A stretch of DNA of 50,683 nt from Actinomycetota bacterium (GTDB taxonomy: Bacteria; Actinomycetota; Acidimicrobiia; Spongiisociales; ZC4RG35), in the NCBI GenBank assembly GCA_036745195.1, contig DAIOGO010000001.1:40252-90934 (forward strand), in the 5' to 3' direction. Within the stretch, counting starts at the first letter, position 1; every line of letters starts with the position of its first letter. The notes below the pieces were generated by a model. The model was not told where the DNA came from, did no database searches, and worked only from the letters and a program-made list of their open reading frames with translations. This document shows positions 575 to 50,683 of this stretch, piece after piece. A program made the translations under genes and the position numbers.

Positions 575-670
575 GTCGCGAGTCGCGAGTCTCGAGTCGC
601 GAGCCAGCATTCGATCAGGGGTTCAGGTTCCGCGTTCAAGGTCCTGCTTTGAACTTGCACCCTGCAACCC
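575..670. repeat. Heptamer-periodic non-coding tract, locus A: (GTCGCGA)x4 followed by GGTTCAG/GTTCAAG-type words
   Basis: 575-602 reads GTCGCGA GTCGCGA GTCTCGA GTCGCGA. 603-670 continues in a 7-nt register with GGGGTTCAGGTTCCGCGTTCAAGGTCC, words shared with the arrays at 5935-6195 and 47301-47596. It lies between the convergent pilT-like gene (stop 567-569) and the deacetylase gene (stop 724-726). Confidence 0.7.
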
Positions 671-4624: not shown

Positions 4625-5185
4625 ATGGATGACATCGGTCTCGTCCAACTGGTGGCGGGTGGCGACCGGAGTGCGTTCTCCGCTCTGATGGAACGTCATC
4701 AGGACCTGGTTTTCGGGGTTGCGCTCCGGCTGATGGGAAACCGGGAAGCCGCCCTCGACGCCGTCCAGGAGACGTTCATAACGCTGTTTCGCAAGGCCGA
4801 TCGGTTTCGGGCCGAGGCAGCCTTCACGACCTGGCTCTACCGGGTCACCACCAACACCTGTTACGACCTGCTCCGCAAGCAGCGGCGCCGTCATGCCGAT
4901 CCCCTGCCCGAACATCACGACCCCGTCGACACCCGGACCGCCGACCAGTTCACGTCCGTCGAACTCCGCCCGGCGGTCGAGAGCGCCCTCGCCTCGATCC
5001 CGCCGGAATTCCGCGCCGCCGTCATACTCTCGGATCTCGAAGGCCTCTCGATGGAGGAGATCTCCCGGGTGCTGGATATCCCGATCGGTACCGCCAAGTC
5101 GAGGCTGTTCCGGGGGCGAAGACTCCTGGCCGAACGACTCGGGAACCTTCTCGACACCAACCGACCTCTAACCGACGATGCATGA
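4625..5185 (+). CDS. sigM: ECF (group IV) RNA polymerase sigma factor, SigM-like by position
   Basis: Region 2 (LVFGVALRLMGNREAALDAVQETFITLF) and region 4 HTH (LSMEEISRVLDIPIGTAKSRLFRGRRLL). ATG 4625 was chosen; in-frame GTG 4592 (GTGA overlap with the upstream stop) is an alternative. The symbol rests on synteny only. Confidence 0.85.
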   Translation: MDDIGLVQLVAGGDRSAFSALMERHQDLVFGVALRLMGNREAALDAVQETFITLFRKADRFRAEAAFTTWLYRVTTNTCYDLLRKQRRRHADPLPEHHDPVDTRTADQFTSVELRPAVESALASIPPEFRAAVILSDLEGLSMEEISRVLDIPIGTAKSRLFRGRRLLAERLGNLLDTNRPLTDDA

Positions 5186-5930
5186 CCACGATCTCGACCT
5201 CGTAGCCGATCTCAGCATCGGTCTCGACCCCGACGGGGCTGCCCGGCGATTGGTCGACTCGTGTGCCGAGTGCGCCGCCGAGTTCACCCGCCAGGTGGCG
5301 GTTCGTGACCTGCTGGGCGGGATGCCGGCGGCGGTCATGACCGATGACGAACGACGGAGTCTGCGGGCGGCGGTGGGCAAGGAGTTGGACCGGGGCGCCT
5401 CTGTCCTGGCCTTCCCCCGGCGATGGGCGACGATCGGTTCGGTGGCGGCCGGCGTGCTCGTGCTGGTAGGGGTGGGGGGCGTCCTCAGCCAGTTGGGTGG
5501 GGGCAACGGTGCCGCCGAGTTCGACACGATCGCCAGTGCCCTGGGAGGAGCGCAAACCGAGACCACCGCAGCTCCCAGCGCCGACCAGAGCTTCACTGCC
5601 GCCGAGATGGCGCCGGCCGGGGTCGAGCCGATCCGCTTGGTCGACTTCGGCGCGTTGGACCTGCAGGCGTTCGTGGCCCGTCTAGCCGAGCAGGCCGACC
5701 TCGACGAGAAGGCCCGAGCCGGTGGCGACACCACCGGGACCACCACCACCTCCTCGATCACGCCCGGCGACCCGCAGCAGCCGGCCTGTCTGGATCGTGT
5801 CGCCGCACCGGGCCAGACGGTGGTGACGGCCGTCGTCGACGGAACGCCGGTGGTTGCCTACCTGCCGCTGGGTGAGGCAACCTTCGTCGCCTTCCGGATG
5901 TCGGACTGCGAGCCCTTCCCCCTCGAGTGA
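5178..5930 (+). CDS. Anti-sigma factor (single-pass membrane protein) cognate to the upstream ECF sigma
   Basis: The start overlaps the sigma gene stop by 8 nt (ATGCATGA). The N-terminal cytoplasmic segment has CAEC, followed by one TM (WATIGSVAAGVLVLVGVGGVL) and an extracytoplasmic C-terminal domain. The position is equivalent to anti-SigM. Confidence 0.7.
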   Translation: MHDHDLDLVADLSIGLDPDGAARRLVDSCAECAAEFTRQVAVRDLLGGMPAAVMTDDERRSLRAAVGKELDRGASVLAFPRRWATIGSVAAGVLVLVGVGGVLSQLGGGNGAAEFDTIASALGGAQTETTAAPSADQSFTAAEMAPAGVEPIRLVDFGALDLQAFVARLAEQADLDEKARAGGDTTGTTTTSSITPGDPQQPACLDRVAAPGQTVVTAVVDGTPVVAYLPLGEATFVAFRMSDCEPFPLE

Positions 5931-5934
5931 TCCC

Positions 5935-6195
5935 GTCCTGCGCCATGCGTCCTGCGCCATGCGTCCTGCGCCATGCGTCCTGCGCCATGCGCCATGCGTC
6001 CTGCGCCATGCGTCCTGCGCCATGCGCCATGCGCCCTGGGCGGTTCAAGGTTCAAAGTACAAAGTTCAAGGTCTTCACCTTCAACCTTCAACGTTCTACC
6101 TTCTACTTTCAACCTTCCTCGTTCGTCGTTCCGCGTTCATCGTTCATCGTTCATCGTTGATCGTTCATCGTCTTCCTTCTTCGGTCTCGTCTCGG
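5935..6195. repeat. Composite heptamer array, locus B: four consecutive blocks of 7-bp words (about 36 units)
   Basis: 5935-6039 holds 15 units of GTCCTGC/GCCATGC. After a 2-nt slip, 6042-6076 reads GGTTCAA GGTTCAA AGTACAA AGTTCAA GGTCTTC. 6077-6118 holds ACCTTCA-type x6, and 6119-6174 holds TCGTTCA-type x8, decaying to CCTTCTT/CGGTCTC. Every position was read directly. The period of 7 excludes coding. Confidence 0.9.
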
Positions 6196-6211
6196 TATCC
6201 TTCGAGCGCCA

Positions 6212-6490
6212 ATGCCCGAGTTCGCCGCCAAGCTCGCCGACTTCCTGGAGTCGATCGCTGTCAAGGCGCGCGCCCTCACCGTCGATCGAGCCAATCGGGC
6301 GATCGTCATCGCCGGCCTGGGGCTTCCGATCACGGTGCTCGCCCTGATGGCGGTTGTGTTCCTCTTCATGACGATCCACGGCGCCCTGGCGGTCCCTCTC
6401 GGTGATGCCGCCGCCTTCGGCATCCTGACGGGACTATTCGGACTGGCAGGGGCGTTGGTCTGGAGCAAGAGAAGCAAGGAATCATCGTGA
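6212..6490 (+). CDS. Small two-TM membrane protein of unknown function, translationally coupled to trxB
   Basis: 92-aa ORF with strong third-position GC bias, an amphipathic N-terminus, two hydrophobic helices and a basic tail (KRSKESS). Its stop overlaps the trxB GTG start (GTGA at 6487-6490). No obvious SD upstream. Confidence 0.65.
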
Positions 6491-8774: not shown

Positions 8775-9613
8775 AGCCTCTCCAGTTCCTCCAGCGACTT
8801 GAACGGGATTTCCACCCTCCCCTTCTTGCTCTTGTACCGGATCGACACCTTGGTCCCGAATCGATCCGCCAACCGCTGCTCGAGTTCGATGATCTCCACC
8901 GGTCGCACCTCGCGCAGCACCGCCGGCTTGTCGGGTGGGGCCTCCTTGCGGATTCTGACGGCTTCTTCGACCTGACGGACGCTCCAGCCCTCCTCCGCCG
9001 CTTTGGCGGCGATGTGTTCGGCGTACTTGCGGTCCCCGATCGCCAGCAGGGCCCGGGCGTGGCCGACGGACAACTCGCCGCGCTCCAGCATCCCCTGGAT
9101 CGATGCCGGAAGCTGCAACAGCCGGATCATGTTGGTGATGGCCGAGCGGCTCTTTCCGACTTGCGCCCCCACCTCCTCGTGGGTCATGCCAAAATCTTCC
9201 AGGAGCTGCTGGTAGGCGGCTGCCTCCTCCAGCGGACTGAGGTCCTCCCGCTGGACGTTCTCGATCAACGCTTCGGTCAACGATCCCCGATTGTCGACGG
9301 TGCGAATGACAGCCGGGACGGTCTCCAGCCCCAACCGTTTCGCCGCCCTCACCCGCCGCTCCCCGGCGATGAGCACGAATCCCCCATCGTCCTCCCGCAT
9401 CACCGCCACCGGCTGGAGGATCCCGACCGCCTGGATCGATTCGGCGAGCGAGGCGATCGCCTCGTCCGAGAACCGGGCCCGCGGCTGGTTCGGGTTGGGT
9501 TTGATCGAGTCGACCCTGACCTCGGCGAAATCGAGCCGATCCGGTTCCGAATGCACCGGAATCAGGGCATCGAGTCCACGACCCAGCCCACTTCTTCGTG
9601 TCGTCATGTTCAA
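8753..9613 (-). CDS. parB: Chromosome partitioning protein ParB
   Basis: GLGRGLDALIP N-terminus, ParB box GERRVRAAKRLG, HTH (GMTHEEVGAQVGKSRSAITNMIRLL). Overlaps the parA stop by 4 nt. Confidence 0.95.
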   Translation of the reverse strand: MNMTTRRSGLGRGLDALIPVHSEPDRLDFAEVRVDSIKPNPNQPRARFSDEAIASLAESIQAVGILQPVAVMREDDGGFVLIAGERRVRAAKRLGLETVPAVIRTVDNRGSLTEALIENVQREDLSPLEEAAAYQQLLEDFGMTHEEVGAQVGKSRSAITNMIRLLQLPASIQGMLERGELSVGHARALLAIGDRKYAEHIAAKAAEEGWSVRQVEEAVRIRKEAPPDKPAVLREVRPVEIIELEQRLADRFGTKVSIRYKSKKGRVEIPFKSLEELERLYRLFFV

Positions 9614-10386
9614 CCCTCTCGTCCGTGCCGGCGACGAAACTCGCGCGCCAGCTCCCGATAGGCAATGGCTCCCCGACTCATGTTGTCGAACGTCTCGATG
9701 GGCTCGCCGAAGGATGGGGCCTCCGAGAGACGCACCGAGCGCGGAATCACCGTCCGGTAGGCCGCATCACCAAAGTGCCGCCGGACCTGTTCCATGACGT
9801 CCTTGGCCAGTTTGGTTCGAGCGTCGAACATCGTGAGGACCGCGCCCCCGATCTCCAGGTTCGGATTGAGAGAATTCTTGATCAGGTCGATGTTGCGCAT
9901 CAACTGAGACAGCCCTTCCAGTGCGTAGTACTCGCACTGGATCGGGATCATCACCTCATCGGCGGCGGCGAGTGCGTTGACCGTCAACAGCCCCAGGGAC
10001 GGGGGACAGTCGACCACGATGAATTCGTAGTCCTCGAGCACCGGCTTGAGCGCCATTCGCAGCCGCTGTTCTCGGGAGAACACCGACACGAGCTCGATTT
10101 CCGCTCCGGCCAGGTCGATCGTCGCCGGGACGAGGAAGAGATCACGCACCGAGGTTGGCTCGATCGCGTCCTCCATCGCCAACTCCTTCAAAAGTACGTC
10201 ATAGATCGATCGAGTGATGTTCTTGCGCTCGACCCCGACCCCGGATGAGGCGTTCCCCTGCGGGTCGAGGTCGACCAGCAACACCCGTTCGCCCTGCAGG
10301 GCAAGGCCGGCCGACAGATTGATCGCGGTGGTGGATTTGCCGACCCCACCCTTCTGATTTGTAATGGTGACCACGGTGGCGGTCAT
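9610..10386 (-). CDS. parA: Chromosome partitioning ATPase ParA/Soj
   Basis: Deviant Walker A NQKGGVGKSTTAINL, and Walker B FIVVDCPPSLG. Confidence 0.95.
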   Translation of the reverse strand: MTATVVTITNQKGGVGKSTTAINLSAGLALQGERVLLVDLDPQGNASSGVGVERKNITRSIYDVLLKELAMEDAIEPTSVRDLFLVPATIDLAGAEIELVSVFSREQRLRMALKPVLEDYEFIVVDCPPSLGLLTVNALAAADEVMIPIQCEYYALEGLSQLMRNIDLIKNSLNPNLEIGGAVLTMFDARTKLAKDVMEQVRRHFGDAAYRTVIPRSVRLSEAPSFGEPIETFDNMSRGAIAYRELAREFRRRHGREG

Positions 10387-10402: not shown

Positions 10403-10942
10403 CTAGCGGTCCATCATAAGGACCCAGGACACCGGTTCAAGGATCCCCACCCCGACCTCCCTGGTCGAGAATCCCGGGACCGACAATTCTGCCACCCGTG
10501 AGCCGAGAACCACTCCATACCCACCGGGTGCGACCAGTCGATGCAGAGATTGGAGAACCCGGCCGGGTGCGGCGAGACCGCGAGCCACCACCACGTCGAA
10601 GATGCCCTCGAGATCATTGACATCTCCCTGCATCACGGTCACGTTGGGCAATCCCAACACCCGGGTGGCACGCTTCAACAGCCGGCAACGCGCCCCGGAT
10701 CGGTCAAACAACGTCACCGTCGCGCTCGGATAGAGGATCGCCAATGGAATCCCGGGCAACCCTACCCCGGACCCGAGATCGGCGATCGAGGAGGGTCGGA
10801 GTGGATGCCAACATTCGGCCACCGCCAGCGAGTCTGCGAGGTGCCGATTGTCGAGACGATCGGCTTCCTCCGGTCCCAACCCGCCTGCCGCTGCAGCTTC
10901 TGAGGTCAACCAGTCCCCGTACTGGCCGATCGCACTAGCCAT
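10403..10942 (-). CDS. rsmG: 16S rRNA (guanine527-N7)-methyltransferase RsmG (GidB)
   Basis: HLADSL, SAM motif IADLGSGVGLPGIPLAI, position between jag and parA. ATG 10942 has a GGAGGG SD 9 nt upstream. The ORF-track GTG at 11002 (no SD) is the alternative and would fit the usual N-terminal length better. Confidence 0.85.
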   Translation of the reverse strand: MASAIGQYGDWLTSEAAAAGGLGPEEADRLDNRHLADSLAVAECWHPLRPSSIADLGSGVGLPGIPLAILYPSATVTLFDRSGARCRLLKRATRVLGLPNVTVMQGDVNDLEGIFDVVVARGLAAPGRVLQSLHRLVAPGGYGVVLGSRVAELSVPGFSTREVGVGILEPVSWVLMMDR

Positions 10943-14154: not shown

Positions 14155-15534
14155 TTGGTGGTGGACGCGCAACACTTCGAAGGGGTCGATGCATCGGATC
14201 AATTCCAACGAACCCTCCGGGACAGCGCCAATCCCGCCACCTGGCAGACCTGGTTCTCGCGGCTCCGGATCGAGCGCCGGCCCGACGGGTACACGGTGGT
14301 CGCCCCCTCGGACTTCCACCTCCATTGGATCCTCGACAAACACCAGCAGTCGATCCAGGCAGCGTTTTCGACTGCCTACGGTCCTGATGCCGTCCTCCGC
14401 TTCGAGGCGGCCCTCGACGATCTCGAGATCGACGATCCCGATGTGGTCCGCAGCCCGGTCGATCCGGAGAAGGGTCACCAACCGGAGCTCCCGATGCAGC
14501 CGGAGCAACTGGCCCGCCTCATCAAGAAATACCGGTTCGAGTCTTTCGTCGTCGGTCAGTCGAATCGGTTCGCGCACGCGGCGGCGATGGCGGTGGGGGA
14601 GACGCCCGGCACCCGCTACAACCCGCTCTTCATCTACGGAGGCGCCGGGCTCGGCAAAACCCACCTGCTCCACGCCATCGGGCATCTCGCCCTCGAGCTC
14701 TACCCGGACCTCTCGGTCCGATACGTGTCCTCCGAGACCTTCTTCACCGAGTTCATCGACGGGATCCGCAAGAAGCGGATGGACGACTTCAAACAGCGGT
14801 ACCGAACCACCGACATCCTCCTCCTCGACGACATCCAGTTCTTCGAAGGCAAGGAACAGATGCTCGAGGAGTTCTTCCACACCTTCAACACCCTCTACGA
14901 GACGGGCAAGCAACTCGTGATCAGCTCGGACCGGGCGCCCCGCCACCTCTCCACACTGGAGGATCGGCTCAGGAGCCGCTTCGAGTGGGGGCTGATCACC
15001 GACATTCAGCCACCCGATGTCGAGACTCGCCTCGCCATCCTGAAGAGGAATGCCGAGTTCTGTCCTACCCCGGTGCCGGCCGACGTCCTCCATCACATCG
15101 CCACCCTCGTCTCGGACAACATCCGCGAGCTGGAGGGGACCCTCACCAGGGTCACGGCCTTTGCCTCGCTCACGGGTCAACACGTGACCCTCGACCTGGC
15201 CGAAACCGTGCTTCAGGATCTGCTCCCCGGCCAGTCCAAGCGCACGATCGACGGGCCCCGCATCCTCGACGAGGCTGCCTCCGACTTCGGCTTTGCGATC
15301 GAAGAGCTGCGCGGGCCCTCGCGCCGTCAGCCGCTGGTCCTCAGCCGTCAGATCGCCATGTACCTGTGCCGGGAGCTGACCGACCTGTCGCTGCCGCGGA
15401 TCGGGGACCTCTTCGGTGGTCGCGATCACACCACCGTGCTCCACGGTGTCGAGAAGATCCGCAAGCTCATGCAGACCGACCGGGCGGTCTATGACAAGGT
15501 CACCGAGCTCTCCCAACGGCTGAGGAAAACGTGA
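14155..15534 (+). CDS. dnaA: Chromosomal replication initiator protein DnaA
   Basis: AAA+ Walker A GGAGLGKTHLL, Walker B LLLDDIQF, sensor and box VII motifs, C-terminal DNA-binding signature IGDLFGGRDHTTVLHG. Start is TTG 14155 or in-frame GTG 14158/14161, after GAGAGGAG (14143-14150). Confidence 0.95.
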   Translation: MVVDAQHFEGVDASDQFQRTLRDSANPATWQTWFSRLRIERRPDGYTVVAPSDFHLHWILDKHQQSIQAAFSTAYGPDAVLRFEAALDDLEIDDPDVVRSPVDPEKGHQPELPMQPEQLARLIKKYRFESFVVGQSNRFAHAAAMAVGETPGTRYNPLFIYGGAGLGKTHLLHAIGHLALELYPDLSVRYVSSETFFTEFIDGIRKKRMDDFKQRYRTTDILLLDDIQFFEGKEQMLEEFFHTFNTLYETGKQLVISSDRAPRHLSTLEDRLRSRFEWGLITDIQPPDVETRLAILKRNAEFCPTPVPADVLHHIATLVSDNIRELEGTLTRVTAFASLTGQHVTLDLAETVLQDLLPGQSKRTIDGPRILDEAASDFGFAIEELRGPSRRQPLVLSRQIAMYLCRELTDLSLPRIGDLFGGRDHTTVLHGVEKIRKLMQTDRAVYDKVTELSQRLRKT

Positions 15535-15746: not shown

Positions 15747-16829
15747 GTGCGTATCAGAGCCGAGCGTGACGATCTGGGGGATGTGTTCGCCCGCGCCAAC
15801 CGTGCAGTCGGTCCACGTGCTGCTCTCCCCGTGCTGCAAGGGTTGTTGTGCGAGGTGTCGGGTGGAACCCTTCAGGTCACCGGCACCGATCTCGAGATGA
15901 CCGTCCGCACCCAACTCGGAGTCGAGGTTCTGCAGGAGGGACGAGCCGTGATCCCCGGGAAACTCCTGGAGCAGGCGGTCCGGCGTATGCCCAAGGGCCC
16001 GGTCACGATCGGAGCCGAAGAGGGTGAGGTGGAGATCCTCGGGAAGGGCCCCCGTTTTGGGCTCAGGCTTCTCTCCGCCGACGACTTCCCGTCGGTCGAC
16101 ACCACCCCGGCGGGCGGCACCGAGGTCGACGGCGACCGGTTGGCCCAGGCGGTGTCCCAGGTGGCGGTAGCCGCTTCGAGCGACGGGGCTCGACCCATCA
16201 TCACCGGCGTCTTGTTCGAATCCACCGAAGCCGGCGTCCGCCTGGTGGCCACCGACTCATACCGGTTGGCGGTGTGTGACCTGGAAGGACTCGGGATCGA
16301 GGGTTCTGGCCTCATCCCGGCCCGGGGGCTGAAGGAGTTGCCGCGGACCATCGGTTCGAGCAAGGTGAGGGTCGATCTGTCCGGGCGAGAGGGGGTGTTC
16401 GGATCCGATCGGGGCACGCTCCGGTTGAGGATGATCGAGGGAGCTTTCCCCAAGTACCGGACCCTCCTCCCCGAGTCCTACCCCAATCAGGTCATCGTCT
16501 CGAAGGAGTCCCTCCTCGAGGCATTGGGTCGGGTGGCGCTGGTCGCCGAGGATCACATCCCGGTTCGGCTCCGCATTTCCGAGGGAGGGGTGGAGATCGC
16601 CGTGAGCCGGCAGGACGTCGGTGGCGAGACCGAACACCTCAGTGGTGAGTACAAGGGCGAGGCCGACGAGGTGACGATCGCCTTCAATCCTCGCTATCTG
16701 GCCGACGGGGTGACCGCGGTGAACAGCGAACACGTCCGCATCCAGGTGATCGACAGCCTCAAACCGAGTGTCATCGATTCGCTCGACGACCCGGCATTTC
16801 TCTACCTGCTCATGCCGGTTCGCATCTGA
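15747..16829 (+). CDS. dnaN: DNA polymerase III beta sliding clamp
   Basis: 360-aa ORF with typical N-terminus (LPVLQGLLCEVSGGTLQVTGTDLEM) and C-terminus (YLLMPVRI). GTG start after GGAAGGA. Confidence 0.95.
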   Translation: MRIRAERDDLGDVFARANRAVGPRAALPVLQGLLCEVSGGTLQVTGTDLEMTVRTQLGVEVLQEGRAVIPGKLLEQAVRRMPKGPVTIGAEEGEVEILGKGPRFGLRLLSADDFPSVDTTPAGGTEVDGDRLAQAVSQVAVAASSDGARPIITGVLFESTEAGVRLVATDSYRLAVCDLEGLGIEGSGLIPARGLKELPRTIGSSKVRVDLSGREGVFGSDRGTLRLRMIEGAFPKYRTLLPESYPNQVIVSKESLLEALGRVALVAEDHIPVRLRISEGGVEIAVSRQDVGGETEHLSGEYKGEADEVTIAFNPRYLADGVTAVNSEHVRIQVIDSLKPSVIDSLDDPAFLYLLMPVRI

Positions 16830-46627: not shown

Positions 46628-47305
46628 GTGAGCGAGGAGTCCGACCGGATCTTCGCCCGGATCGCCCGTCGTTACGACCTCCTCAACAAGATCCTCTCGT
46701 TCGGGCAGGAGCAGGCCTGGCGTCGCCGGGGAGTTGAGCATCTGCCCCGGGGGCGGGTTCTGGATCTGGGGAGCGGCACCGGGGCCGCCGCCCCGGTGCT
46801 GGCGGGTTTCGAGGTGGTGGCTCTCGACCCTGTCCCCGAGATGCTCGCCCTGAGCCCGATGTCGGCCCGGGTGGCCGGAGTCGGGGAGCGCCTCCCCTTT
46901 GCCGACGGCACATTCGACGGGGTGTTCTCCGCCTATGTGTTCCGCAATCTCACCTCCATCCCGTCAACGCTGGCCGAGTTGCACCGGATCCTGGTTCCGG
47001 GAGGGAAGGTGGTGGTGGTCGACCTGGGGAGACCTCGCAACCGGTTGCTGGCCGGTCTCCATCGCCTCGGCTCCTCCATCTTCCTGCCTCTGGCCGGGCT
47101 CATCGCCGGCGCCCCCCGCGACTACTGGTATCTGCACCGTTCGCTCGACAAACTGGCCCCGGTCGAGGAGTTGTACCGGGGCACACCCTTCGAAGTGGAA
47201 CGCACCTGGCGGATGGGCCCGCTCGGGTTCGTGTACGGAGTGGTGTTGAGGAAGGGCGATCAGGCATCGGCCCTCGGCCATCAGCCATCCGGCGATGTGG
47301 GTTGA
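46628..47305 (+). CDS. Class I SAM-dependent methyltransferase, UbiE/MenG-like
   Basis: FARIARRYDLLNKILSFGQEQAWRR is a UbiE/COQ5 N-terminal signature. SAM motif VLDLGSGTGAA, motif post-I FDGVFSAYVFRN. GTG start at 46628. The stop TGA (47303-47305) lies inside the first word of the downstream repeat array. Confidence 0.85.
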   Translation: MSEESDRIFARIARRYDLLNKILSFGQEQAWRRRGVEHLPRGRVLDLGSGTGAAAPVLAGFEVVALDPVPEMLALSPMSARVAGVGERLPFADGTFDGVFSAYVFRNLTSIPSTLAELHRILVPGGKVVVVDLGRPRNRLLAGLHRLGSSIFLPLAGLIAGAPRDYWYLHRSLDKLAPVEELYRGTPFEVERTWRMGPLGFVYGVVLRKGDQASALGHQPSGDVG

Positions 47306-47596
47306 AGGGTTCAGGTTGAAGGGTGAAGGTTCGGAACTTCGAACTCTGACTTCGAACTTCGAACTTCGAACCTTCCAGCGCGTATGGCGCAAAGGCCATC
47401 AGGCATCGGCTATCAGCGATCAGCGATGAAGGTTGAAGGGTTCAGGTTGAAAGGTGAAGGTTCGGAACTTTGAACTCTGAACCTTGAACTTGGAACCTTC
47501 CTGCCCGCATGGCGCATGACGCATGACGCATGACGCATGGCGCATGGCACATGGCGCATGACGCAGGACGCATGACGCATGGCGCATGGCGCAGGG
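47301..47596. repeat. Composite heptamer array, locus C: two tandem modules in inverted orientation relative to locus B
   Basis: Module 1 spans 47301-47397 and module 2 spans 47398-47596. Both contain GTTGAAG GGTTCAG GTTGAAR GGTGAAG GTTCGGA ACTTYGA ACTCTGA..AACCTTCC. Module 2 is preceded by ATCAGGC ATCGGCT ATCAGCG ATCAGCG and ends with 13 units of CGCATGR (47506-47596). The reverse complement has the same block order as 5935-6195. Confidence 0.9.
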
Positions 47597-47597
47597 G

Positions 47598-47730
47598 CCA
47601 TCGGTTCGGTGCGGCCGCCAGGCGTGACTGCGGCGCTCGAGGGGAGCCGCTTATGGCTGCTTCCTTCCGGACCTGACCAGATTCGCCGCGCCTCGCCGCG
47701 CAGGACCCGGAGGCCGCACCCAACCGATGG
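47598..47730. repeat. 19-bp imperfect inverted repeat pair enclosing 95 bp, adjacent to heptamer array
   Basis: CCATCGGTTCGGTGCGGCC (47598-47616) pairs with GGCCGCACCCAACCGATGG (47712-47730): 18 of 19 positions are complementary. It lies in the 3' region of the minus-strand methyltransferase gene (stop 47764-47766). Confidence 0.6.
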
Positions 47731-47763
47731 GTGACACATGGTAGAGGTCAGTGGAACCTTCGA

Positions 47764-48540
47764 TCACCGGGGCTTGGCACCCCGGAAGTAGGCCGGCCTC
47801 AGTTCACCGTTGTCGAGCACCACGGTGAGGGCTCGCCAGTCCTCGATGAAGTGGTCACGACGTTCCGGCCCGAGCAGGTCGGCCATCCGGTCGTACCAGT
47901 CGGTCAACATCTTCGAATACTCGAGGTGGGCCATCTCCCGGTATTCGGCGTGGGCGTCCTCTCCGGTCGCCTCCACGAACCCGGCCTCGGCCATCCAGCG
48001 CAGGTACTCGGTCAGGTCGCCCATCACATACGTGAGCCCCTCCAATTCGAACCAGCGGAGCATGTCGGGGGAGAACGGTTCGGGCCCCTTGAGCCAGTCG
48101 TAGGCCAGCAGCCGGCCACCCGGACGCAGCACCCTGATGATCTCGGAGAACATGTTCGGCTTGTCGGGAACATGGATGAGGGCGGCGTGGGTGAACACGT
48201 GATCGAACGAGGCGGCCGGGAACGGCAATGGGCCGGGCTCGGCGCGGACGTACTCGACCCGGTGGGACAGCCCGGCTCGGGCGGCATTGGCCCGGGCTGC
48301 GTCGATCAGCGGTTGTTCGATGTCGAGACCGGTGACGATGGCGGAGAACTCCCCGGCCAGCACCAGGTCGGCGCCGCCGATCCCGCAACCGATGTCGAGA
48401 ATCCGACAACCGGAGAGGTCGATCCCGTCCACGGTCCGGCGAACGCTGGCGGGACCCCCCGGCGCCAGAAAACCCTCGCCCCACACCAGTTGGAGCAGGG
48501 TCACCAGTTCCTGGTCGTACTCGTCGCCGGCGTCGCTCAT
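47764..48540 (-). CDS. Class I SAM-dependent methyltransferase (phosphoethanolamine N-methyltransferase-like)
   Basis: ATG 48540 overlaps the tadA stop (ATGA). WGEGFLAPGG, SAM motif ILDIGCGIGGADL, LRPGGRLL. 258 aa. The upstream codons of track ORF 47764..48741 overlap tadA and were discarded. Confidence 0.85.
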   Translation of the reverse strand: MSDAGDEYDQELVTLLQLVWGEGFLAPGGPASVRRTVDGIDLSGCRILDIGCGIGGADLVLAGEFSAIVTGLDIEQPLIDAARANAARAGLSHRVEYVRAEPGPLPFPAASFDHVFTHAALIHVPDKPNMFSEIIRVLRPGGRLLAYDWLKGPEPFSPDMLRWFELEGLTYVMGDLTEYLRWMAEAGFVEATGEDAHAEYREMAHLEYSKMLTDWYDRMADLLGPERRDHFIEDWRALTVVLDNGELRPAYFRGAKPR

Positions 48541-49071: not shown

Positions 49072-49165
49072 GGAGGGGTCGCATAGTTTGGCCTAGTGCG
49101 CGGCACTGGAAATGCCGTTGGGGGCGTAAGTCTCCACGAGGGTTCAAATCCCTCCCCCTCCGCCA
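49072..49165 (+). tRNA. tRNA-Ser (anticodon GGA), CCA encoded
   Basis: Acceptor GGAGGGG/CCCCTCC, anticodon arm CGGCA-CTGGAAA-TGCCG, long variable arm, T arm GAGGG-TTCAAAT-CCCTC, discriminator G then CCA. Confidence 0.9.
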
Positions 49166-49223
49166 TCGTCCGAGCAGGCCCGGTTGGGCGCGCCGGGTGT
49201 TCCTGGTACGTTTCGCCACTCCT

Positions 49224-49312
49224 GGAGGGGTCGCATAGGCCGGCCTAGTGCGCGGCACTCGAAATGCCGTAGGGGCGTTCGCTCCTCGAGGGTTCGAATC
49301 CCTCCCCCTCCG
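49224..49312 (+). tRNA. tRNA-Ser (anticodon CGA)
   Basis: Same acceptor, anticodon stem and T stem as the preceding gene. The anticodon loop is CTCGAAA, and the D loop and variable arm differ. CCA not encoded. Confidence 0.9.
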
Positions 49313-49373
49313 CCGGACATCCAGGTCGTCGCAGGACGGCCCGGATGTCATTGTCGACGGATGTCCGTCGCAG

Positions 49374-49463
49374 GGAGGGATGACCGAGCGGCCGAAGGTG
49401 ACGGTCTTGAAAACCGTTGAACCCGCAAGGGTTCCGTGGGTTCAAATCCCACTCCCTCCGCCA
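49374..49463 (+). tRNA. tRNA-Ser (anticodon UGA), CCA encoded
   Basis: Acceptor GGAGGGA/TCCCTCC, D region TGACCGAGCGGCCGAAGGTGA, anticodon arm ACGGT-CTTGAAA-ACCGT, long variable arm, T arm GTGGG-TTCAAAT-CCCAC, G then CCA. Confidence 0.92.
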
Positions 49464-50683
49464 ACAACCCCTGATTCAAGGGGTTTCTGAGGGGTAGCCA
49501 TCGATCCTCACTGCGATCGCCGAGACCCTCGGGGCGCACCGGGGCGCGATAGGGGCGCGGGAGAATCGCTTGGCGCACGCTTGGCACGAATCTGTAAGGG
49601 TGTCGTGGCGGCCGCATAGCGGCGGTCGAGGGCTTCTGCCAGGGCATCGAGGTCGTCTTCGTAGAGGTGTCCGTAGAGGTCGAGTGTCATGGCGGCTGAG
49701 GCGTGCCCGAGTTGGCGCTGGACGGCTTTGATGTTGGCTCCGGATGAGATCATGAGCGAGGCGGCGGTGCCGCGCAGGTCGTGGATCCGGAGCTGTTCGA
49801 GTCCTGCCGCTTCGACCGCTGGTTTCCAGATCTGTTGCCGGAACGGTGAGGAGCGCAACGGCCCGCCGTTGGGGGCGGTGAAGACGAGTCCGTCGTCTGG
49901 GATGTCGCCGAGGCGGGGTGCGATGCGGTCGGCGAGGAAGGCGGGCATGGTGACGAGTCGCCGTTCGTGGGTTTTGGGTGTGCCCCATGACAGGCCTGAT
50001 CCGAGTTCGGTGGCTGCCTCGGCGATCTCGATTCGGCGGCGCAGCAGCTGGACACGGGACCGTCTGAGCGCCACCAGTTCGCCCCATCGCATCCCGACCC
50101 ATGCCAGCGTCTCGACGACCAGCCCGGCCCCGTCCTGGGTGTCTTCGGCGCTGGCGGCGAGGAGCGTCACTTGGTCGGCGGTGAGGAACCGCTGCTCACG
50201 TCTGCGCACCGTGGGGGCCTTGACGCCGGATGTGGGGGAGCGGGCGATGACCCCGTCGACGACGGCCAGCTCGAGGGGTGCCGACAGGACTTGTTTGGCT
50301 TGTTTGATCCGCGACGCGGAGAGCCCCTCGGTGGACATGTCGGCGATCCAGTTCCGCACCATCGCTGGGGTGATCCGGTTCAAGGGCAGGTCCCCGAACA
50401 CGGGTAGTACCCGGGAGCGGAGCAGCGATTCGTAGCCGGCGCGGGTTTTGGGTTTGATGTCGAGCCCTGACAACCAGTCGGCGGCCGCTTCGGACAGGGG
50501 GATGTTGCCGGCTTCGGGTGCGATCCAGTCGCCCCGGTCGATCGATCCGAGCCGGGCGATCAGCCACCGGTCGGCGGCGACTTTACGGTCGAAGCTTCTT
50601 GAGCGGATCCGTCCGTCCGGTCCGCGGTATCTGGCTCGCCACCTTCTACCGGTTCGTCCTTGCCGGTCTTCGATCCATCCGGA
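49464..50683. mobile_element. Left/right end of a probable integrative element inserted at the 3' end of tRNA-Ser(UGA); continues beyond window
   Basis: The integrase gene ends 45 nt from the tRNA-Ser(UGA) 3' end, the classic tRNA-targeted integration arrangement. The other boundary and the att repeat are not visible in the window. Confidence 0.5.
49508..50683 (-). CDS. int: Tyrosine recombinase / phage-type integrase (5' end beyond window)
   Basis: C-terminal catalytic motifs are present: ETLAWVGMRWGEL (Arg I), LRIHDLRGTAAS (HxxR), GHASAAMTLDLYGHLY (catalytic Tyr). The reading frame stays open upstream of the track start (TTG 50473) to the window edge. That segment reads WRARYRGPDGRIRSRSFDRKVAADRWL, the typical N-terminal arm-binding domain, so the gene is truncated by the window. 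Confidence 0.9.
   Translation of the reverse strand, partial: SGWIEDRQGRTGRRWRARYRGPDGRIRSRSFDRKVAADRWLIARLGSIDRGDWIAPEAGNIPLSEAAADWLSGLDIKPKTRAGYESLLRSRVLPVFGDLPLNRITPAMVRNWIADMSTEGLSASRIKQAKQVLSAPLELAVVDGVIARSPTSGVKAPTVRRREQRFLTADQVTLLAASAEDTQDGAGLVVETLAWVGMRWGELVALRRSRVQLLRRRIEIAEAATELGSGLSWGTPKTHERRLVTMPAFLADRIAPRLGDIPDDGLVFTAPNGGPLRSSPFRQQIWKPAVEAAGLEQLRIHDLRGTAASLMISSGANIKAVQRQLGHASAAMTLDLYGHLYEDDLDALAEALDRRYAAATTPLQIRAKRAPSDSPAPLSRPGAPRGSRRSQ

Follow-up and report, generated by a model that had tools for sequence, protein, structure and literature searches.

The window, the whole stretch of DNA analysed here, is 50.7 kb long with 66% G+C and covers part of the genome of an uncultured Acidimicrobiia bacterium (contig DAIOGO010000001.1, positions 40,252 to 90,934). 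It contains three sites with arrays of 7-nt repeats (heptamers), which we call loci A, B, and C; the compared sequences carry labels of the form L007. Locus C, our main subject, lies between a gene for a UbiE/MenG-type class I S-adenosylmethionine (SAM) methyltransferase and the gene for the small signal recognition particle (SRP) RNA. The methyltransferase gene (46628-47305, plus strand, 225 aa) was assigned from its open reading frame (ORF), from Pfam families on identical proteins, and from its orthologues. The small SRP (4.5S) RNA gene (47613-47712, minus strand) is a full-length match to Rfam RF00169 at 64.1 bits.

The 3' end of the SRP RNA is 16 nt from the last block of the array. Because this RNA is encoded on the minus strand at so short a distance, the whole locus C array is its 3' trailer there. 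An earlier note on this DNA had placed the array between convergent genes. The neighbour does converge on the methyltransferase gene, but it is this RNA gene and not a protein gene. In L192-L194, where the flanking genes are the same, the SRP RNA core motif lies on the other strand.

Anatomy of locus C

Tandem Repeats Finder reports arrays of period 7 and 14 at 47259-47593, including 12.6 copies of CGCATGR with 90% matches. A self-match scan of the whole window for periods 2-15 gave segments at 7 and 14 alone, and at loci B and C alone. The pattern TGCGYCMTGCGYCMTGCGYC, which stands for three CATGCGY/CCTGCGY units, occurs 19 times in the window against 0 expected.

Two tandem composite modules with a period of 125-139 bp make up locus C, whose direct-repeat families have spacings of 131, 125, and 139 bp. 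On the plus strand, the blocks of each module follow the order ATCRGNN, TGAAGGN, GAACYTY, and CGCATGR, of which the last is reduced to a vestige in module 1 and extends over 13 units in module 2. Module 1 (47259-47397, 139 bp, minus strand), delimited by its heptamer lay-out, the direct-repeat families D2-D4, and alignment, is made up of ATCRGNN (47259-47300), TGAAGGN (47301-47328), GAACTTC/TTCGAA (47329-47377), and vestigial CGYATGG (47378-47397). Module 2 (47398-47596, 199 bp, minus strand), delimited by its 7-nt lay-out and repeats and collinear with locus B once reverse-complemented, is made up of four ATCRGNN units (47398-47425), five of TGAAGGN (47426-47460), six of GAACYTT (47461-47502), and 13 of CGCATGR (47506-47596).

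Much of this lay-out had been read correctly in the earlier note. The two cores that it described, at 47301-47376 and 47432-47501 (70-76 bp), are direct repeats with 93% identity over 58 nt (family D2, spacing 131). The remnant CGTATGG CGCAAAG after module 1, the run ATCAGGC ATCGGCT ATCAGCG ATCAGCG before module 2 (47398-47425), and the 13 terminal units at 47506-47596 are likewise present. The start of the element, which had been put at 47301, has to be moved 42 nt upstream to 47259, inside the methyltransferase coding sequence. The block that begins there reads ATCAGGC ATCGGCC CTCGGCC ATCAGCC ATCCGGC GATGTGG, and its counterpart is the four-unit run before module 2 (family D4, spacing 139).

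The locus C array is real and not an assembly artefact, because six independent metagenome contigs (five from JGI, one from Logan) carry sequence that overlaps it with 0-1 mismatches to the window. One contig alone, L003, spans the whole array, and another, L006, stops at 47318. Four of the six stop at 47505-47507, which is the start of the CGCATGR block; the array thus interrupts short-read assemblies.

Two candidate explanations for the repeated motifs were rejected on inspection. Clusters of restriction or methylation sites (CATG, TTCGAA) were dropped because TTCGAA is restricted to module 1 of locus C and is not found family-wide. Promoters of the extracytoplasmic function (ECF) sigma or sigma-E type inside units that bear GGAAC or TGAAC were excluded by the spacing of the motifs.

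The methyltransferase gene end

Array sequence at 47259-47305 forms the last 15 codons and the stop of the methyltransferase gene. The stop codon (TGA, 47303-47305), which terminates the ORF 46628-47305, sits within the unit GTTGAAG (47301-47307), as the earlier note had observed. A search returned 2296 homologues, which carry the names of class I SAM or demethylmenaquinone methyltransferases of Acidimicrobiia; nearly all of the closest have 209-210 aa and align with 93% of the 225-aa query. In the alignment, the orthologues end in ...VLRK(G/P/R), that is, in VLRK plus 0-2 residues. The protein of the window runs on past VLRK with DQASALGHQPSGDVG, which is the translated first heptamer block.

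Since the orthologues end 15 codons earlier, the array supplies the last 15 residues together with the stop. The earlier note had left two alternatives, that the array furnished the stop codon or that it was inserted exactly at the gene end, and would have given up its view if relatives ended at the same codon without an array. The orthologues do not end at that codon, and the C-terminal alignment supports the first alternative: the array provides a variable tail plus the stop codon, and its insertion point is not the exact gene end. The overlap is confined to the last 15 codons, and the conserved methyltransferase domain is untouched.

Six C-terminal ends occur within the cluster of at least 90% identity: VLRKR*, VLRKRATNKE*, VLRKGDQASALGHQPSGDVG, VLRKGHQASAIGHRPSGDEG, VLRKGHQASAISHQPSAMEVEG, and VLRKGHQPRMTHDA. 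Four of the tails can also be given by their final residues, as ...GDQASALGHQPSGDVG, ...GHQASAIGHRPSGDEG, ...GHQASAISHQPSAMEVEG, and ...GHQPRMTHDA. Such variety might be expected of a contingency (phase-variation) locus, in which slippage by 7 nt, no multiple of 3, moves the last part of the methyltransferase gene into another reading frame and switches the C-terminal tail. However, the changes are limited to residues past the end of the conserved domain, and a canonical 210-aa methyltransferase coexists with a downstream array in L201. The other loci speak against switching as well: loci A and B are wholly intergenic, and locus C is intergenic save for the 47 nt that now form the gene 3' end. 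We consider phase variation the least credible of the explanations weighed here, and the repeat-encoded tail is most simply a by-product.

Loci A and B and their relation to locus C

Locus B is a composite array at 5934-6172 (plus strand; Tandem Repeats Finder range 5934-6171), recognised by its heptamer lay-out and by its presence at the orthologous site in L196-L199. Its first unit lies 3 nt past the end of ORF 5178-5930, and 40 nt separate its last unit from an ATG at 6212. Its blocks are 15 units of GCGCCAT/GCGTCCT (5934-6038), four of GGTTCAA (6042-6072), six of CCTTCAA (6073-6117), and eight of CGTTCAT (6118-6172). Locus A is a short array of four GTCGCGA units (575-603, plus strand) right after the stop of ORF 3-569, which encodes a type II secretion ATPase-like protein (Pfam T2SSE); it was seen at looser repeat settings, and the core profile described below has a weak match near it at 620-670.

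The earlier note had proposed that locus C is a second, inverted copy of locus B with the same block order. The local alignment of locus B (5932-6195) with reverse-complemented locus C scores 158, versus 26 with locus C in forward orientation, and is collinear over ~190 nt across all four blocks. In 300 dinucleotide shuffles the mean score was 19 and the maximum 32; in 300 shuffles of the order of the heptamer units, which keep the unit composition, the mean was 38 and the maximum 68. No shuffle reached 158, and the shared block order is therefore no artefact of low complexity. The alignment bears out this proposal: the composite of locus B recurs, inverted, at locus C.

Just past array B, the non-repetitive stretch GGTCTCGTCTCGGTATCCT (within 6173-6214), ~10 nt ahead of the ATG of a 92-aa membrane protein, is conserved in L197 and L198. 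It may be the promoter of a near-leaderless trxB-trxA operon transcript. A protein search with the translated frame of array B gave no match.

A conserved core with a predicted hairpin

The module 2 core (47425-47497, minus strand) was delimited by an nhmmer match of 67.6 bits, by its fold, and by an alignment of nine copies. The module 1 core (47294-47372, minus strand) scores 57.3 bits with nhmmer and is predicted to fold at -33.9 kcal/mol (z -3.0) into a long TTCGAA-rich hairpin, GGAAGGUUCGAAG...CGAACCUUC. The nine cores, from three loci in four genomes, align around a ~45-nt sequence, AGGTTCAnAGTnCGAACCTTCACCTTTCAACCTGnACCC; they comprise one at locus B and two at locus C of the window, those at locus B of L197 and of L198, three at locus A of L198, and one at locus C of L201. 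The GGTTCAA-type and CCTTCAA-type arms of the core are near reverse complements, and the predicted hairpin forms at their junction in 7/7 folded cores, with z values of -1.4 to -3.8.

These features bring to mind a selected cis-acting RNA or DNA terminator or insulator built of heptamers, in which the copy number would tune read-through from one transcription unit into its neighbour. The arms would form the hairpin, and the C-rich, G-poor tract that adjoins it would load Rho or an RNA-binding protein such as a cold-shock protein. A cold-shock protein covers ~7 nt per domain. Over the CCTTCAA blocks, C exceeds G by ~+0.25 on the sense strand, and the C/G ratio over blocks 2-4 of locus B is 1.8. 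A canonical intrinsic terminator is lacking between the methyltransferase gene and the SRP RNA as well as after ORF 5178-5930: the scan, whose criterion is a GC-rich hairpin with a U-tract behind it, gave no candidate in 47100-47900 or inside array B. Loci A, B, and C are all oriented with their upstream gene.

Two further cases agree with such a role. The core profile also matches arrays in L034 (from a Pyrinomonadaceae) and L148 (4054-4160), the latter from a distant bacterium with 65% G+C whose GyrA is ~55% identical to that of the window. In L148, four TTGAAGG/TTGAAAG units and four CCTTCAA/CTTTCAA units form near-perfect inverted heptamer arms in the spacer between gyrB and gyrA. The spacer between the methyltransferase gene and the SRP RNA gene of L195 holds an unrelated tandem duplication of ~70 bp, each copy of which has a short inverted repeat by eye.

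Several other observations speak against selection on the structure. RNAalifold, run on seven cores, gave no compensatory changes, no covariation, and a consensus energy of essentially zero; the hairpin is therefore a property of the units and not a demonstration of selection. It arises automatically from units that are nearly complementary, and its stems are AU-rich and lack a U-tail. At permissive thresholds too, Rfam covariance models matched nothing on the arrays up to E = 1, besides the SRP RNA. The arrays contain no canonical promoter. A crude survey of TGCGYCM arrays at other GC-rich loci, based on a noisy gene caller that uses G+C at third codon positions (GC3), gave no significant bias in orientation with respect to the neighbouring gene end (10 against 5). 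In addition, the array is missing from relatives with the same gene order, and its composition changes radically among strains with at least 90% identical methyltransferases, as described below. We thus hold a terminator or insulator role to be plausible by anatomy but on the whole unlikely, unsupported as it is by covariation or by conservation beyond the genus.

Arrays in related genomes

The locus C site was compared among close and more distant relatives. L007 and L008, whose methyltransferase is 91% identical to that of the window, have a differently built array, with a CATCAGG-type block, 8-9 units of GATGARC, and 4 units of CATGRCG. Over the 3004 nt upstream of the array, these two sequences have 2 differences; within the array, a single 7-nt unit sets them apart. 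In L201, the methyltransferase is at least 90% identical and has the canonical VLRKR* end, and an array is present nonetheless. Its order is seven units of AACGAAT/AAGGAAT, the core, a CTGATGC-type block, and six units of CGCATGA beside the SRP RNA, so that the CTGATGC-type (ATCAG-type) block is shifted and inverted compared to the window.

Relatives with a 77-79% identical methyltransferase (L009, L189-L195) mostly share the gene order serS, methyltransferase, sometimes an extra ORF, SRP RNA, and tadA, and none has an array at the locus C site. Three distinct lineages among them (L189, L192-L194, and L195), each covered over 18-21 kb, have neither a heptamer array nor a core there. A different heptamer array, seven units of GGGACTC/GGGACCC, lies at 494-548 in another intergenic region of L009 (3.7 kb). 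The duplication of L195, which has no heptamers, is at 10634-10780 and contains AACCCTGGGTAACAGACGTCGCTCAGCGAAGTCC twice.

Locus B has an array at the orthologous site in L196, L197, L198, and L199, next to a flanking protein that is 71-82% identical. The site comes right after the stop codon of a gene that is itself downstream of an ECF sigma gene; beyond it are the genes for the 92-aa membrane protein, trxB, and trxA. The block order of the window is kept in L197 and L198 with different copy numbers, L198 has an additional CTATCGG/GCATCGG block, and in L196 and L199 the contig breaks inside the first block. These genomes are close (trxB is 89-93% identical in nucleotide sequence, and four-fold degenerate sites are 0.65-0.82 identical), which makes the persistence of the array weak as evidence of constraint.

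At the locus A site of L198 (4500-5600; orthologous to 575-603 of the window), the ~1.1 kb that follow a gene for a type II secretion ATPase-like protein (Pfam T2SSE) are occupied by three higher-order repeats. Each contains a GGCATCG array, the core, and an 86-nt GC-rich element, TTTCTCCCCCC...GGGGGGAGAGCCGGCGCAGCCGGGAGGGGGGCACGG, which has no Rfam match. Homologous composites thus occupy three or more intergenic sites around the replication origin (oriC) in one genus-level group of uncultured Acidimicrobiia.

The presence of homologous, collinear composites at three separate loci might mean that a small non-autonomous mobile or recombinationally spreading element inserts at gene ends, with the heptamer arrays as its variable flanks. 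The threefold composite of L198, with the GC-rich element in each copy, would fit such spreading, and TTTTGTCTCCTCCCCTCGGGAGGA after the L007 array resembles this element, a resemblance seen by eye only and without alignment. Against this stands the absence of the GC-rich element from the window, where neither terminal inverted repeats nor a duplicated flank at the array borders was seen; the sole inverted pair reported by the repeat finder is the terminal helix of the SRP RNA. No transposase lies nearby, the three more distant relatives contain no core in the 18-21 kb of each, and the composite was not found as an array in a metagenome scan. A mobile element is accordingly an improbable source of the composites.

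Replication origin and neighbouring genes

The window holds the replication origin region, with parA (9610-10386, minus strand), dnaA (14155-15534), dnaN (15747-16829), and a cumulative GC-skew minimum near 15-16 kb. The origin has loci A and B on its left and locus C on its right, with B and C in mirror orientation around oriC. Because locus C is inverted relative to locus B across the origin, both have the same orientation relative to fork movement. Both arrays are also oriented alike with respect to the gene whose end lies immediately upstream (ORF 5178-5930 for B, the SRP RNA for C). Two or three loci are too few to tell these two explanations apart or to make either significant.

An array of DNA-level binding sites for a nucleoid, segregation, or replication factor could account for this placement, given that all loci seen are within ~35 kb of dnaA and dnaN and that B and C flank oriC as mirror images. 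The sampling is biased, however, in that the window happens to be the origin region. The 7-bp period does not match the helical repeat of DNA, and unit sequences and copy numbers vary freely between strains. Moreover, the units are unlike the consensus sequences of parS sites and DnaA boxes. We therefore give this explanation very little weight.

Farther to the right, at 49072-50473, three tRNA-Ser genes (GGA, CGA, and TGA anticodons) are followed by a minus-strand gene for a tyrosine recombinase of the phage integrase family. Integrases are found at a comparable place downstream of tadA in L195 and L201, and that of L195 has a TrwC relaxase beside it. An integrative element may have an integration hot spot in this tRNA-Ser/integrase region.

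Heptamer arrays beyond the lineage

A scan of genome contigs with TGCGYCMTGCGYCMTGCGYC gave matches in many phyla. Those listed include Streptomyces, Chloroflexi, Brocadiaceae, Acidobacteria, Bacteroidetes, cyanobacteria, and an archaeon, and no Acidimicrobiia relative is among them. Many of the listed arrays have several adjacent blocks of different heptamers. The translated frame of array C matched 153 proteins of a representative library, evidently spurious ORFs over CATGCGC-like arrays. The core was absent from 16/16 such loci that were retrieved, including those that match furthest into the core part of the query.

A metagenome scan with the composite GCCATGCG..GTTCAAGGT..CCTTCA gave 61 loci, which are chance or coding matches except for L148; the source population was not returned. 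Of two scans of viral contigs with core patterns, one gave a single chance match in AT-rich DNA and the other was empty. Arrays of the CATGCGC/CCTGCGC type are general across phyla, and the collinear four-block composite is, within the sequence examined, seen in this lineage only. Since the CATGCGC-type arrays occur in many phyla and the composite was not found in the metagenome scan, it is the heptamer arrays that are the general phenomenon.

This recurrence can be read in another way, in which the array is a selected, tunable terminator or insulator and the same heptamers appear across phyla through a shared reader or a heptamer-generating mechanism and not through chance slippage. Such a cause would lie behind the occurrence of CATGCGC in more than 150 clusters of spurious ORFs, and of GGTTCAA/CCTTCAA in Acidimicrobiia, Acidobacteria, and another GC-rich bacterium. 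We consider this reading improbable.

Gene calls across arrays were also seen in the relatives, at L198:10779-11015 (78 aa), L198:4680-5618 (312 aa), and L004:2875-2961 (28 aa). The representative protein library contains at least 153 such 'proteins' with a CAMRHAP-like 7-residue periodicity. All three of these public gene calls are almost certainly spurious.

A probable lineage-specific family of composite arrays

Taken together, these observations make it fairly probable that locus C belongs to a lineage-specific family of composite heptanucleotide arrays, akin to the short tandemly repeated repetitive (STRR) type of simple-sequence repeat (SSR), which changes by slippage and recombination. 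The arrays have the features of heptanucleotide SSRs and STRRs: head-to-tail 7-nt copies, an intergenic site, and variation of copy number and sequence between close relatives.

On the strand that follows the upstream gene, the composite reads CATGCGY, GGTTCAA-type, CCTTCAA-type, and CGTTCAT or CGCTGAT-type, and the CCTTCAA-type block, nearly the reverse complement of the GGTTCAA-type, creates the predicted central hairpin. Arrays gain and lose units in 7-nt steps, as replication slippage predicts, whole composites are duplicated in tandem (with the 125-139 bp period here), and from strain to strain blocks are shifted or inverted. The locus C array has grown over the methyltransferase 3' end, which leaves 15 extra repeat codons and a TGA inside a unit. 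Copies may have come to separate loci through ectopic recombination, or through gene conversion, between arrays with units in common.

Any role of such arrays would be at most weak and tolerant of sequence. One possibility is that the hairpin and the C-rich, G-poor tract help to end or insulate transcription where a canonical terminator is lacking, at locus C past the SRP RNA, and at locus B in the gap that separates the sigma/anti-sigma genes from the trxB operon.

Three points weigh against slippage and recombination as the full account. Simple slippage leaves the constant order of four heptamers at separate loci unexplained. The ~45-nt core, too, is still recognisable despite slippage, and both features could reflect constraint. 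Finally, the orientation of the composite relative to the upstream gene is the same at 3/3 loci, although with three loci this is not significant.

An excess of intergenic heptamer arrays, none with a proven function, is seen in many bacteria. The present family is a GC-rich actinobacterial case with an unusually clear anatomy, in which the blocks keep a fixed order, a predicted hairpin stands at the centre, and homologous copies flank oriC. L007 and L008 are direct evidence of one-unit slippage between near-identical strains, and locus C shows how a heptamer array can rewrite a protein end. In practical terms, such arrays break short-read assemblies, as in the four of six contigs that stop at one point, and create spurious public gene calls.

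Comparison with known repeat systems

Heptameric repeats are over-represented among bacterial simple-sequence repeats (PMC4692102). STRRs were first described in Calothrix PCC 7601, and three tandem heptanucleotides were reported early in Calothrix (cited in PMC4692102). The GGGAATC repeats of Xanthomonas are flanked by the same genes in two species while their length and sequence vary extensively, and ~70 of them are inverted pairs able to form stem-loops (PMC4692102). Polymerase slippage has been proposed as the cause of heptameric repeats (PMC4692102; see also PMC4679880). MacGregor (2015) found TAACTGA heptamer repeats common to unrelated phyla and proposed the RNA-binding proteins S1, Csp (cold-shock), and CsrA as their readers (PMC4679880). 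The array described here is a lineage-specific example of these known but poorly understood intergenic heptamer repeats of cyanobacteria and Xanthomonas; it is set apart by its unit sequences, the fixed multi-block order with a shared core, and the host.

The closest parallels are the GGGAATC repeats of Xanthomonas and the GGGGAYT repeats of Nostoc (Rehm et al. 2015, PMC4692102), which are also tandem intergenic 7-nt units at shared sites with variable length and sequence, have inverted arms able to form a stem-loop, and have been ascribed to slippage. Here, however, the units are not G-rich, so that no G-quadruplex is possible, and four or five heptamers stand in a fixed order around a core common to separate loci, in a host of the Acidimicrobiia. 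Cyanobacterial STRRs, such as the Calothrix example L076, share the intergenic position, the several heptamer families, and the adjacent blocks of different heptamers, whereas their units (CAACAGT, CATTGAC, CCCTAAC) differ from ours. STRRs are also highly abundant across their host genomes.

The TAACTGA repeats of Beggiatoaceae, cyanobacteria, and Bacteroidetes (PMC4679880) are likewise intergenic heptamer direct repeats that recur across phyla. They mostly have 2-6 copies just upstream of start codons, whereas the arrays here have 4-15 copies per block and lie right after stops. The repeats of clustered regularly interspaced short palindromic repeat (CRISPR) arrays have 23-50 nt and alternate with unique spacers; the units of locus C have 7 nt, are contiguous, and have no spacers. 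As in the contingency loci of Haemophilus and Neisseria, slippage alters the copy number in near-identical strains and affects a reading frame, but here only a dispensable C-terminal tail is affected, and no surface or restriction gene is switched on or off.

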